A stretch of DNA of 64,000 nt, taken from the IMG/VR virus record IMGVR_UViG_3300017917_001903, positions 1 through 64,000 of that record, one strand, 5' to 3'. The notes beneath the pieces were generated by a model. It searched no databases. It had not been told where the DNA came from and saw nothing but the letters and a program-made list of their open reading frames with translations. The position numbers were made by a program, and so were the translations under genes. Positions 310 through 59,964 of this stretch are shown in pieces; positions within the stretch are counted from its first letter, which is position 1, and each line of letters starts with the position of its first letter. This DNA comes from a virus.

Positions 310-1165
310 ATCTAACCAAGCCTGAGATTACAGCTTCGAGCGAGTGTCTTTGACTTGTACCCTGTCCCTTGCGAGGAAGGTTGAGCCGTTATCCACTAAG
401 GTCCTTGCGGATCACCTAGTAACACTCAGTGCTGCCTTTTTTGGAGAGTGGCGTTTCTCTCGTCGTATGTTGCTATTCGTCCATCTATCTTCCGCCAGCC
501 TTGCGAGCTGTTCGACTGCGCTAACAGTCTACGTCTTCTATCCGAACAATCACTTCTGCCTTGCGAGCTTCTGTGAACCCAATTCACTTGCGTGTCAGGT
601 ATTAAGCACCTTTCACAACATACCGGAGCAGTCTTTCGCTTTTTGTTACAAACTGGGAATTGAACCCAGATCGACTGTTTAAGAGACAGTTGCATTACCA
701 TTATGCAATTTGCGAACCTACCAAGATGTGCTGCTCCAGTTGCTCCATACCTTGTTAGATACAGAATACAACACACCTCATGCCTTTCCCCTTGCGAGGT
801 ACTAAACGGTTTTTCAAGTCTCCCCTCATCGGTTCAACTATCAAACTAGTACTCGGCCCTTCTGCGCGAACAGTCGAACCCTGTACCTACCTGTTGATCA
901 TCAACATTCACAAGTTTGGTATGTTATAGCTTGGCCACCACAGCCTCTTGGAACTCACCGACTGGCTCTGTTCCTATCCTTTCGGACTATAACACCTGCT
1001 TACTGTCTATCGCCAACCATTACAGTGACGAAGGTTGCTTTCGGATTACTCCGAGTCAACCCTGACCCAGGCTTGCATAAATGGACTCTTGCGAGCGCAG
1101 GTGCGTAGGCTTTCCTGCTTTAGCTACATTGCTGTAGTTACCCTAAGGACGTTATGCCGCCCAAT
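310..1165 (-). ncRNA. GOLLD-like giant structured RNA (~850 nt)
   Basis: No credible ORF; five CTCGCAAG and other GNRA-capped hairpins on the minus strand; own promoter; adjacent to phage tRNAs; size and context fit GOLLD. Ends approximate. Confidence 0.75.
646..715 (-). ncRNA. tRNA-Lys(CTT)-like domain embedded in the giant RNA, no CCA
   Basis: D arm GCAT/ATGC, anticodon arm ACTGT-CTCTTAA-ACAGT, T arm CTGGG-TTCAATT-CCCAG, imperfect acceptor stem. Confidence 0.75.
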
Positions 1166-1757: not shown

Positions 1758-3053
1758 TTATTGGCGTGTTGTTTTTATACCGTCTGCTGTAGGGACTGTA
1801 TCAACAACGTCAATGTCTATAACTATGCTTTTTTGTCTTACGTAGTCTGCAAGTGTTGCATAATCTTTAGACGTGATATTTATAAGCGGATTATCTCCGT
1901 TGTCAAAATTAATGAAATAGTTTAAAATGCCTGTGTCTGTTTCTAACATGGTCTTGAAATGACCTGTTAACATTTTTATACCATCTACTCGAATCCAGTT
2001 AGTGTCTAATAGTCGACCAACGTAACGTATTTGATTGTCATGCAAATCAACAATATCACCGGAAGGAAACTGTACACCATTTGGGCGCTCAATTAAAAGC
2101 AAACCACTAGTGGAATTAACACTGTAGCGATAATGATGGTTTATGATATTAAAACGTTTATCGGTTTCTGACAAGTTGTTTATGTACCTAACTGCTAACG
2201 GTGGGCTAGCTTCAGTTAGACCGTAAATGTCAACTACTGTTTGAGCACCACCATCAAACAAATGCTCTAGCAACTTTGGTTTTAAATAATCGCCGCCAGT
2301 TGTAACATACCGTAGTTTGGTACACTTGGGCATTTTATGTGTGTCAACCATAGTGTAAAAAAATTGCGAGTGTGTTGCTTTAAGCATTTCACTTTCCCAA
2401 TTGTCGTGGTTAGCAAAACTTAAAACACTTGCACCAAACACAGCCGGTAATATGGCAGTAGAGTGAACCCCCACGTGACTCATACCATGTGAGAACACAC
2501 AATAGTCATCGGGCCGAATATATTCATCAATAGCAATGCGAATGCTTAGTGCATCGTATCCAACTGAAGTTTTAATTAATCTTGGTTTGCCAGTTGTGCC
2601 GCTGGAAAAACTATATTTGTAGTTATGTTCTCGGAAGGTAATATCTAAGCTATGCGGAACAGCGTATTTTGTTGCAGGATGTTGATCTGCCAATACGATT
2701 CTGTTACTGCCTCGAAAGTCTTCTTCGGGAATTTTGATATCATAACCAACAACAAAAACCTTACCAAAGCCACCAAAGTTAGTTTCAGCTGACTTTACAT
2801 AATCAATAATCGGTAGGTAAGGATCAATCTTAACGTAATCCTTTCCGTAATCGATCAGCGCCAACAGTACAGCAACAGACGAAAAGCTAGTTGATCCTCC
2901 AGCATATACTATGCCAAATGGGTATCCATTATCGTTGTCTGCAATAAACTGTTTCCAATAACCTACTGCCGCCGCTAACTGCTCACGAGTATATTCGCCA
3001 GCTGGGTCTCGGATAATTAAATTTTTACTTACTTTTAGAACTATATCTTCCAC
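1758..3053 (-). CDS. AMP-binding (acyl-CoA synthetase/ANL family) protein
   Basis: SSGTTGKPR P-loop, YGLTE and SGD motifs. Confidence 0.8.
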   Translation of the reverse strand: MEDIVLKVSKNLIIRDPAGEYTREQLAAAVGYWKQFIADNDNGYPFGIVYAGGSTSFSSVAVLLALIDYGKDYVKIDPYLPIIDYVKSAETNFGGFGKVFVVGYDIKIPEEDFRGSNRIVLADQHPATKYAVPHSLDITFREHNYKYSFSSGTTGKPRLIKTSVGYDALSIRIAIDEYIRPDDYCVFSHGMSHVGVHSTAILPAVFGASVLSFANHDNWESEMLKATHSQFFYTMVDTHKMPKCTKLRYVTTGGDYLKPKLLEHLFDGGAQTVVDIYGLTEASPPLAVRYINNLSETDKRFNIINHHYRYSVNSTSGLLLIERPNGVQFPSGDIVDLHDNQIRYVGRLLDTNWIRVDGIKMLTGHFKTMLETDTGILNYFINFDNGDNPLINITSKDYATLADYVRQKSIVIDIDVVDTVPTADGIKTTRQ

Positions 3054-5840: not shown

Positions 5841-5916
5841 TGGTGGACTGTGTAGGGATCGAACCTACGACTTACTGATTAAGAGTCAGCTACTCTACCT
5901 ACTGAGTTAACAGTCC
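5841..5916 (-). tRNA. tRNA-Lys(CTT)
   Basis: cloverleaf, encoded CCA. Confidence 0.95.
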
Positions 5917-55899: not shown

Positions 55900-56057
55900 T
55901 GTGTTTCCTTCCTGCTAGTGTTTATATACACTATTTATGAAAAGAAACACCAAAAATAAGTACTCGGTTTATCTCCGTCCGGTCGACACGGACTTGATCC
56001 TACTCATTGCCATCGCTGTGCGACAAACCTTACACCGAAAGGTAGGGCGGCAAATTC

Positions 56058-56760: not shown

Positions 56761-56824
56761 TTTTATTTTCCTTATTAAAAAGCAGAAGTATTAGTTTCTG
56801 CTAATATATTTATAGGGAAATTTT

Positions 56825-57000
56825 TACAAGTGCGATTTTTTCTGTTGCTAGGAAAAATCGCAAACCCCGGAGAATTACGCTGCTAGAGCGTAATCACCAT
56901 ATGCAAAGTCATTATCGTTTGCAGTTACTTTTTTTGGCACTTTGCCAGTCAATCAGTCTCGGCATTCCTATTCCGCGTCAATCGATCCTATTTCAGGCCC
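56825..57000 (-). ncRNA. ssrA: two-piece tmRNA, coding piece; tag ANDNDFAYGDYALAA (56875-56922)
   Basis: GGGCCTGAAATAGGATCGA 5' end; tag frame ending LAA-TAA. Confidence 0.9.
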
Positions 57001-57001
57001 A

Positions 57002-57202
57002 TCATAAAAAAACTGCTGCTAGCGCAAGAAAAATAGCAAATGCAAGTAATGCTCTACCCCAATACTCTTGGTCGCTTTCATTGGGAATACTGCGACCATA
57101 ATATTTGTCTACTATCTTGTGCCATTCTGCTAATTCCTTGTCCGAGAGTGTCCCAGGAAAGTGATAGCCTCTCCAATATAAACGATTCTCTTCCTCAGTC
57201 AT
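57002..57202 (-). CDS. 66-aa membrane-anchored protein in the tmRNA intervening segment
   Basis: AAGGA RBS, ATG, C-terminal hydrophobic helix; fills the spacer. Confidence 0.7.
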   Translation of the reverse strand: MTEEENRLYWRGYHFPGTLSDKELAEWHKIVDKYYGRSIPNESDQEYWGRALLAFAIFLALAAVFL

Positions 57203-57215
57203 AGCAATTTCCTTA

Positions 57216-57280
57216 TGGTGGACCTGCCCGGTACTGCCCCGGGGTCTTGCCGCTTTTATTGTCAGCTGTCAACAACTGAT
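57216..57280 (-). ncRNA. ssrA: two-piece tmRNA, acceptor piece
   Basis: CCCGG-GGCAGTA-CCGGG T arm, CAGGTCC-ACCA pairing with GGGCCTG (G3:U70); 5' end approximate. Confidence 0.9.
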
Positions 57281-57900
57281 GTATTATTTAGTATTGTAAT
57301 TACGTCCTCAGCAAATTTATAGTGTGCAAGTTTTCCAGGATGCTCATTGTCTAACGCTGGAGAAAAATTAAGTGATATATCATTCATAAACACTTTTTCT
57401 ATTTTAGCTGTAGACCAACTAAATTTAACTATCATTCTCTTAGAAACTAAAAAGTGTAAAACTTTAATACCACGTTTTTTAAAATGTAAATCAGCATACT
57501 CAATTCTAGTATAAAGGTCAACGTTGGCATCATAGTCATCATATAGTGTATAAAAATGTTTAGTCGCTGGATCATCTGAATCAGCAGGAATGAAACGTTT
57601 AAATTTATTGGTAATGTGTGCATCTGCAGATTGTACAATGCAGGATCGTTCAGGGTACGTCCAAAGTATAACCACAATGTCATCATCTTGAAAAGCAAAG
57701 TTTTGTATCTTAAAAAGTATCTCTTTATTACTTGCGCCCGGAAAACTTGTGTTTATACATTCTCTTTTAAGATGCTTTGCAACCATAGCTGGCCAAGCAA
57801 ACGAACTAGGTTTACTAAGAGGCTTTTTTGCAACATGATCCCAACAGTCTGGTAAGCCGTGACCATATGTTAGACTGCATCCAAAGGTAATTAATCTCAT
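57262..57900 (-). CDS. SGNH-like protein
   Basis: FGCSLT, PGASN, DNEHP. Confidence 0.75.
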   Translation of the reverse strand: MRLITFGCSLTYGHGLPDCWDHVAKKPLSKPSSFAWPAMVAKHLKRECINTSFPGASNKEILFKIQNFAFQDDDIVVILWTYPERSCIVQSADAHITNKFKRFIPADSDDPATKHFYTLYDDYDANVDLYTRIEYADLHFKKRGIKVLHFLVSKRMIVKFSWSTAKIEKVFMNDISLNFSPALDNEHPGKLAHYKFAEDVITILNNTSVVDS

Positions 57901-59872: not shown

Positions 59873-59964
59873 TGGTACCTCGGGCCGGAGTCGAACCGAC
59901 ATTGGCCAATTATCTGTTGCACACGGGATATAAATCCGCTGTTTTACCGTTAAACTACCGAGGC
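59873..59964 (-). tRNA. atypical tRNA-Ile(TAT) with extra arm
   Basis: normal acceptor, D and T arms; TTTATAT loop; 22-nt extra arm. Confidence 0.7.

Follow-up and report, generated by a model that had tools for sequence, protein, structure and literature searches.

GOLLD RNAs are among the largest non-coding RNAs of bacteria and phages, and the structure of their cage was solved in 2025. One of the few functional clues to GOLLD is a tRNA that some members carry in the inner linker. A 64,000-nt stretch of DNA (the window), which belongs to an 86.8-kb IMG/VR virus record estimated to be ~25% complete, encodes a GOLLD with such a tRNA-like module, and raises the question of what the embedded tRNA is for. 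It could be cut out of the larger RNA and used in decoding, or it could be a permanent part of that RNA, kept for its shape.

The carrier RNA was identified with cmscan. The minus strand of positions 319-779 matched the full length of the Rfam GOLLD model (RF02032, model positions 1-416) at 194.2 bits, where the gathering score is 150. A scan of positions 1-1300 at E values up to 1 returned only GOLLD and tRNA matches. The matched segment comprises the GOLLD 3' domain and the hairpin preceding the linker. The 5' domain, which is variable and lies outside the Rfam model, was assigned to 780-1152 on the same strand from RNA-library contigs, which reach 1121-1152 and together cover 341-1152, and from the published architecture, which likewise has a variable 5' domain (PMC12286853). 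Hexamers read from the sequence indicate a likely minus-strand promoter upstream of GOLLD, with TTGACA at 1238-1233, a 16-nt spacer and TATAAT at 1216-1211. No credible ORF was present in the GOLLD region, which contained only two overlapping frames of 112-116 aa. ARAGORN found 32 tRNA genes and a two-piece tmRNA in the window, and GOLLD lies inside the tRNA array. The locus therefore has the length (~800 nt or more), the variable 5' domain and the phage setting near tRNA genes by which members of this family are recognised. The env-38 and S. agalactiae GOLLD RNAs self-assemble into 12-14-mer cages (PMC12286853, PMC12990946), and in the env-38 14-mer the linker lies in the cage interior (Kretsch 2025, PMC12286853).

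Within this RNA, ARAGORN called a tRNA-Lys with a CTT anticodon at 645-715 on the minus strand, with the anticodon CUU at 683-681 and the anticodon loop at 685-679. The Rfam tRNA model scored the module at 56.8 bits (E 2.7e-11, 1300 bases searched), inside the 44.7-72.9 bit range of the window's other tRNAs. In the RF02032 alignment it falls in an unpaired model stretch of variable length (roughly positions 63-140), between the first GOLLD hairpin and the conserved motif AAAGCGAAAGACU (Rfam consensus AAAGCAAAAGUCU). Read on the minus strand, the D, anticodon and T stems are all perfect at 4, 5 and 5 bp; the loops are CUCUUAA in the anticodon arm and UUCAAUU in the T arm, and GG is present in the D loop. 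The module keeps the requirements of the L shape, namely the three arms, U8, A14, G18, G53-T54-Psi55-C56-A58-C61, U33 and a purine at position 37.

What the module has lost are features of decoding: its acceptor end is not stable, no CCA is encoded and the anticodon is not conserved. Its acceptor is AU-rich and forms 6 of 7 pairs (U1-A, a C2xA mismatch, G3.U, C4-G and three A-U); 26 of the 30 free tRNAs in the window have the full 7 bp. When the isolated 71-mer was folded with RNAfold, the three arms formed and the acceptor stem did not. The discriminator is C645, followed by AAAAAGCG, and the trailer, CAAAAAGCG, encodes no CCA. CCA follows all 30 of the other Rfam tRNA matches in the window, leaving the module as the sole exception among 31. 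Of the properties of a decoding tRNA, it retains a cloverleaf with the universal tertiary nucleotides, and lacks the stable 7-bp acceptor and the CCA.

The window also supplies a direct comparison, a free canonical tRNA-Lys(CUU) at 5841-5916 on the minus strand (71.4 bits). All 7 bp of its acceptor are present, it ends in ACCA, and 5844-5916 folds into a textbook cloverleaf. Its anticodon loop, CUCUUAA, is identical to that of the module. The discriminator is C in the module versus A in both free Lys tRNAs. The idea that the module is a recent copy of this gene was rejected, since the two differ along the whole of the acceptor and of the D and T stems.

These features bear on the explanation that the module is an excised, working tRNA-Lys(CUU). 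RNase P and a 3' endonuclease would cut it from GOLLD, the host CCA-adding enzyme would complete it and it would decode AAG, perhaps after being stored in the cage until the cage opens. The idea of storage has been published (PMC12990946, PMC12286853), and the good score of 56.8 bits, the canonical anticodon loop shared with the free tRNA-Lys(CUU), and the retention of U33, R37 and all tertiary nucleotides are consistent with a working tRNA. They must be set against an acceptor with a C-A mismatch and a G-U pair that stays unformed in the fold, a missing CCA that is unique among 31 tRNAs, a discriminator that departs from both free Lys tRNAs, and redundancy with the gene at 5841-5916. No CCA-adding enzyme (PF01743) was found in the 86.8-kb record, which covers ~25% of the genome, so this search is uninformative. 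We consider excision and decoding unlikely, and return to them below where relatives and RNA libraries add evidence.

The folds suggest how the cloverleaf is closed in its native context. Folding of 620-740 (z -3.2) gave a cloverleaf closed by UCGC/GCGA and left an A-rich bulge of ~9-10 bases on its 3' side. In a longer fold, UUCGC at 716-712, consisting of the last leader base and module positions 1-4, paired with GCGAA at 639-635. The 5' strand of this predicted hybrid closing helix was read from minimum-energy folds; the 3' strand, which lies within the conserved GOLLD motif AAAGCGAAAGAC, was read from the Rfam consensus, the folds and pair counts. The A-rich bulge, at 640-649 on the minus strand, separates GCGAA from the inner acceptor pairs in the folds. 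Cloverleaf and closing helix were together nested inside a 10-bp helix, in which ACUGGAGCAG at 740-731 forms the 5' strand and CUGCUCCGGU at 631-622 the 3' strand of a long-range GOLLD helix around the linker (all on the minus strand). The enclosing helix was seen in the fold of 620-740 and finds support in relatives, where its 7-mers co-change (GGGACAG/CTGTCCC, GCGGCAG/CTGCCGC and GATCGGG/CCCGATC). We infer that it corresponds to the published P14.

Evidence for the hybrid closing helix was sought in 59 related modules, collected as described below. The 5' acceptor strand was 81% paired with the GCNAAAG motif, compared with 74% when shuffled and 27-56% when slid. A few double changes preserve the pairing (UUCGC/GCGAA, UUGCG/CGCAA, UUGCAU/AUGCAA and UUUGCA/UGCAAA); the pairing is absent in several lineages, and its covariation support is modest. 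By this comparison, the hybrid closing helix is likely, rather than proven, to be real for the window's clade. The fold of 620-740 also showed UCUU/AAGA as a short pairing lying between module and enclosing helix; we make no claim for it, since apart from the constant UC/GA its bases vary with no compensating changes.

A sequence-only reading of this locus had described a tRNA-Lys(CUU) cloverleaf inside a giant RNA, with intact D, anticodon and T arms and no CCA, and had called it redundant for decoding in view of a normal tRNA-Lys(CTT) at 5841. ARAGORN, Rfam and the folds bear out each of these points, and the UCGC/GCGA closure with its 9-10-base bulge supports the further claim that a bulged helix extends the acceptor into the surrounding RNA. 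The description of the module as degenerate is apt for the acceptor end and not for the body, which is canonical.

To place the module in the GOLLD family, we drew on two scans of IMG/VR. Scan 1 used a GOLLD 3'-end pattern and yielded about 109 loci with enough upstream sequence; ARAGORN found a tRNA 214-252 nt before GTGGATAA in at least 13-14 loci other than the window's own. Scan 2 combined a T loop with GOLLD motifs and returned 105 unique stretches, about 40 of which were false matches in protein-coding DNA. Because scan 2 required a T loop, it is silent on how often GOLLDs carry the module, and the frequency comes from scan 1 only, which was not biased towards tRNAs and gives a lower bound. 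From scan 2 we used the 59 non-identical modules with an ARAGORN tRNA; four true modules that ARAGORN missed (L004, L155, L216 and L229) were left out of this set.

The 59 modules separate what is kept from what is free to vary. Their D, anticodon and T stems were 94.8% paired, with changes on both sides in 12 of 14 pairs, and the arm covariation score was 0.75 versus 0.20 in shuffled and at most 0.195 in slid alignments. The equivalents of U8, A14, G18, G53, T54, Psi55, C56, A58 and C61 were invariant, U33 was at least 90% conserved, and 50 of the 52 seven-base loops had a purine at position 37. Only 4 of the 59 had all seven acceptor pairs, the usual defect being two broken outermost pairs, and CCA was present in only three. 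Good acceptor stems together with CCA were found in lineages L133, L137, L134 and L119. These comparisons indicate that what selection preserves is the L-shaped body, together with the layout of the anticodon loop, and not the acceptor end, CCA or the identity of the anticodon.

Such a pattern also has to be weighed against simple decay, in which a tRNA gene landed in a tolerant linker and persists as a functionless relic. A frayed acceptor end, a lost CCA and a drifting anticodon are in keeping with decay; one GOLLD (L099) retains only the T arm, and most GOLLDs do without the module altogether. The strong compensatory change in the three arms and the invariant tertiary nucleotides of the 59 modules are not, and we regard decay as very improbable indeed, also in light of the population variant and the module exchange described below. 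The perfect acceptor stems and CCA of the L133, L137, L134 and L119 linkers bear on the working-tRNA explanation in the other direction, in its favour, and some linker tRNAs of this type may be processed.

We then considered the anticodon, which a decoding tRNA would be expected to conserve among orthologues. It was not conserved. The 59 modules carried CTT (9), TCT (8), TTT (6), TAG (6), TGA (6), GTT (3) and many singletons, and included the stop anticodons TCA, CTA and TTA as well as A34 anticodons. Seven modules had loops of 8-9 nt. Variation was evident even where the supporting stem was constant, with eight different loops on ATTCC/GGAAT and five on ACAGT/ACTGT, and the window's own body type (TCGCAAATTGCATAATGGTAATGCA...) elsewhere carries AUG, UAG, UAU or UGA instead of CUU. 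'Ser' and 'Leu' anticodons occurred on short class-I bodies; seryl-tRNA synthetase needs a long variable arm. Among the 10 loci having at least 20 tRNAs, a free tRNA with the same anticodon as the embedded module was present in seven. For the working-tRNA explanation the difficulty is that relatives with the same body and an AUG, UAG, UAU or UGA anticodon, or an 8-nt loop, could not all be charged coherently. Kissing of anticodon loops inside the cage was also considered and dropped; UUAA in CUCUUAA is palindromic, and most other loops are not.

Loop variation of this kind also bears on the proposal, made in the sequence-only reading, that the displayed anticodon loop is a decoy for tRNA-Lys anticodon nucleases. 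In its general form, the anticodon arm would lure a host anticodon nuclease (PrrC, RloC or PARIS type) and so spare the tRNA-Lys of cell and phage. Lys anticodons are in fact the commonest class among the 59 modules (15, or CTT 9 plus TTT 6), the modules conserve the U33/R37 loop architecture but can dispense with the acceptor end, and an arms race would be in keeping with the rapid change of loops and the exchange of cassettes. The classical substrate of PrrC, however, is tRNA-Lys(UUU) and not CUU; the anticodon varies even among near-identical bodies; and loops of 8-9 nt, A34 and stop anticodons make poor mimics of host tRNAs. Pfam found no RNA-repair or nuclease-related gene among the 20 larger ORFs scanned. 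A T4-type RNA ligase 1 (PF09511) was not found in the 86.8-kb record (~25% of the genome), and since the control matched no genome this search is uninformative. Bait enclosed in a closed cage would, moreover, be hard to reach, judging from the published structure (PMC12286853). Comparing the embedded anticodon across relatives, as the sequence-only reading had recommended, left the tRNA-Lys decoy unsupported: bodies nearly the same as the window's carry AUG, UAG, UAU or UGA, and others carry stop anticodons. We think the chance that the module is nuclease bait is low.

Full-length GOLLDs of the window's clade were aligned, and identity in the module was compared with identity in the backbone. 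Between L210 and the window, identity was 97% in each of the two domains (5' and 3') and 95% across the 20-nt flanks; it fell to 63% in the module, which in L210 has an 8-nt loop. L211 and L214 presented the converse, with 94-96% identity in the module and 60-72% in the domains. From this contrast in identity between module and backbone we conclude that the module has been exchanged between backbones. Two conserved flanks, GGUAGGUUCGCAAAU and AAAAGCGAAAGAC, mark the limits of the exchanged segment. A module that is swapped between backbones, and not lost, argues against the relic explanation.

The stretch was found in six metatranscriptome runs and in many freshwater DNA runs. Four RNA-library runs from four studies were compared as assembled contigs, a form in which RNA ends and levels are unreadable and DNA carry-over is possible. 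GOLLD was present in all four. One 783-nt contig (341-1121) bridged both module junctions uncut, and three more unitigs (598-737 or 598-744) bridged the 3' junction with >31 nt on either side. Uncut junctions exist in these libraries, and the contigs say no more than that. Contigs stopped at 341 in two studies and at 1121 in two studies, which hints at RNA ends weakly at best. Positions 185-340, 1201-1520 and 1761-2400 had no contig in the four libraries, an absence that is readable neither as silence nor as an argument against DNA carry-over. Depths in run X17 (module unitig, 815; 5'-domain unitigs, 893-1520; 3'-domain unitig, 3673) cannot rank the parts of the gene.

The libraries also captured natural variation in the module. 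One run contained a variant with 10 substitutions, all within 644-704, that left CUU unchanged. Six of these substitutions form three compensatory pairs, one per arm (A12-U22 to C-G, U28-A40 to A-U and G49-C61 to A-U), and the existence of this variant in a natural population counts against a decaying relic. Another contig diverged from the window exactly at the 5' boundary of the module.

The bridging contigs weigh against any explanation that requires cutting at the module, including release of a working tRNA. They also weigh on the possibility, raised in the sequence-only reading too, that the module is a processing handle. Acting like the tRNA-like punctuation of other transcripts, it would let tRNA-maturing enzymes split GOLLD into 5' and 3' halves, which the enclosing helix would keep paired. 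The location is suitable, the module lying exactly between two structurally separate domains (PMC12286853); the enclosing 10-bp helix could hold the halves, and the surrounding tRNA array needs RNase P anyway. But the contigs run uncut across both junctions, and a leader predicted to pair with the trailer should, on general grounds, make a poor RNase P substrate. Furthermore, most GOLLDs have no linker tRNA (about 13 of about 109 in scan 1 have one, a lower bound), and cutting is therefore not needed for the GOLLD family. A role as a processing site is, in our estimation, distinctly improbable.

An embedded tRNA or pseudo-tRNA in the GOLLD linker has already been published, and the module described here adds no new kind of element. 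PMC6582537 credits the original GOLLD paper (Weinberg 2009) with an embedded tRNA. tRNAs occur in the GOLLD linker, and the cage has been drawn exposing covalently linked tRNAs (Kretsch 2025, PMC12286853); a tRNA-Phe lies in J13/15 of Mycolicibacterium GOLLD, for which 'inhibited storage' was proposed (2026 review, PMC12990946). The GOLLD of M. aubagnense contains a pseudo-tRNA gene that gave no separate northern signal (Behra 2019, PMC6582537), an observation that also disfavours a working, released tRNA. The window's GOLLD resembles the published linker-tRNA GOLLDs (J13/15) in belonging to the same family, in having its insert between the pre-linker hairpin and AAAGCNAAAG and in its phage setting inside a tRNA array, and it shares with the M. 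aubagnense insert the character of a pseudo-tRNA. It differs from the published linker-tRNA GOLLDs in its sequence, which is new and comes from a fragment of a freshwater phage. Neither the CCA contrast nor the hybrid helix, the hypervariability of the loop or the cassette exchange was found in PMC6582537, PMC12286853 or PMC12990946, the three papers to which this comparison extended. We regard the CCA contrast, loop hypervariability and cassette exchange as useful refinements of a published feature, and not as a new class.

Similar modules were present in cultured phages. Three alphaproteobacterial phages had GOLLD matches of 170-194 bits with a tRNA-like match at the same offset. The linker module of Phaeobacter phage MD18 is Arg(UCU) and that of Mesorhizobium phage Cp1R7A-A1 is Leu(CAG), 72 nt long, both with anticodons that differ from the window's; in Sinorhizobium phage Phosso the module was an Rfam tRNA match only. 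Like the window's module, those of the cultured phages have weak acceptor stems, and two of them have hybrid pairing of the TTGCG/CGCAA type. In GenBank they are annotated as ordinary tRNA genes or are unannotated.

Other large RNAs also contain tRNA mimics. The tRNA-like domain of tmRNA and the tRNA-like structures at viral 3' ends mimic the acceptor end and are aminoacylated. They resemble the module in being tRNA mimics embedded in a larger RNA; unlike them, the module keeps the elbow and the anticodon arm and has lost the acceptor end. Comparable in principle is the bacterial Y RNA YrlA, which has a tRNA-like domain (Chen et al. 2014, as cited in PMC9569102). Both would be non-decoding, tRNA-shaped domains inside a larger non-coding RNA, but there is no relation of sequence or family. 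YrlA is tied to the Ro protein, whereas the window's carrier belongs to an RNA cage family, and no Y-RNA match was found in positions 1-1300 (Rfam, E up to 1).

The pattern of conservation fits a retained mimic of tRNA shape, and not a decoding tRNA. We put at roughly 60% the probability that the module is such a mimic, non-decoding and retained in GOLLD, with 12-14 copies carried into the cage interior. On this reading the module would stay covalently in GOLLD and not be released. Its closing stem would consist of its own inner acceptor pairs and of the UUCGC/GCGAA pairing with the host RNA. If the cage resembles those of env-38 and S. agalactiae, its interior would hold 12-14 of these projecting modules. 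There the tethered mimic may attract or bind a factor able to recognise the shape of a tRNA, which appears to be its most likely mode of action. Counting against retention, the conservation of U33/R37 and the canonical loop would also fit a working tRNA.

A variation on retention would make the anticodon arm, and not the overall shape, the working part. The cages would display 12-14 exchangeable, fast-evolving loops on a fixed tRNA scaffold, as a multivalent bait or sponge for a host factor that reads anticodons, be it an enzyme that cuts or modifies them or a complementary RNA. We think this quite unlikely; if it were true, cassette exchange and loop hypervariability would be the footprint of an arms race, and GOLLD would have its first function.

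The comparison sharpens one of the few clues to this family. The module appears to be selected for the shape of a tRNA, and not for decoding or charging, and it is exchanged as a cassette between GOLLD backbones. Models that have the cage hold or present a tRNA mimic are favoured by these findings over models that have GOLLD do no more than co-transcribe a useful tRNA, against which the findings argue.

Immediately 5' of the tRNA-like Lys(CUU) module embedded in the GOLLD linker lies an unpaired leader, GGUAGGU (716-722, minus strand). This heptamer is kept in most tRNA-bearing GOLLDs, with GTAGG present in most rows of the alignment; its conservation suggests that the leader makes a tertiary contact.

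The module itself varies among other GOLLD-bearing loci from IMG/VR. In L099 (IMGVR_UViG_3300024273_002191) the linker, ~80 nt before that locus's AAAGAC motif, retains only a T arm (AGGGTTCAAAGCCCA) and the TCGC/GCGA flanks, and it looks like a module cut down to its T arm. The GOLLD backbone of L210 is 97% identical to that of the window, and yet L210 carries another tRNA-like cassette as its module (~404-499, minus strand), one whose anticodon loop (AUUGAUAA) has 8 nt. In a minority of cases (L133, L137, L134 and L119) the tRNA in the GOLLD linker has a good acceptor stem with CCA or ACC after it, and therefore some linker tRNAs may be genuine, excisable tRNAs.

Downstream of GOLLD, positions 1-184 were covered by contigs assembled from three RNA libraries. 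These contigs are separate from the GOLLD contigs, which begin at 341, and the 1-184 segment may represent another stable RNA.

Several further features lie beside or among tRNA genes, all on the minus strand. Immediately 3' of tRNA-Thr(TGT) is a COG2908 RNA motif (56008-56052) that scores 70.3 bits, above its gathering score; here it occurs in a phage and does not precede a COG2908 gene. A predicted 'tRNA-Ile(TAT)' (59873-59964), at ~90 nt unusually long for an Ile tRNA, directly adjoins tRNA-Leu(CAA). Also among the tRNA genes is a 431-aa ORF (1758-3053) that matches, at E = 1e-11, the adenylate-forming (AMP-binding) family of enzymes.

The window also encodes a two-piece (circularly permuted) tmRNA of the alphaproteobacterial type (56784-57315, minus strand; tag ANDNDFAYGDYALAA). 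Such a tmRNA is likewise present in the cultured Phaeobacter phage MD18, where it adjoins GOLLD. The alphaproteobacterial-type tmRNA in the window, together with that of MD18, thus points to an alphaproteobacterial host for this phage.
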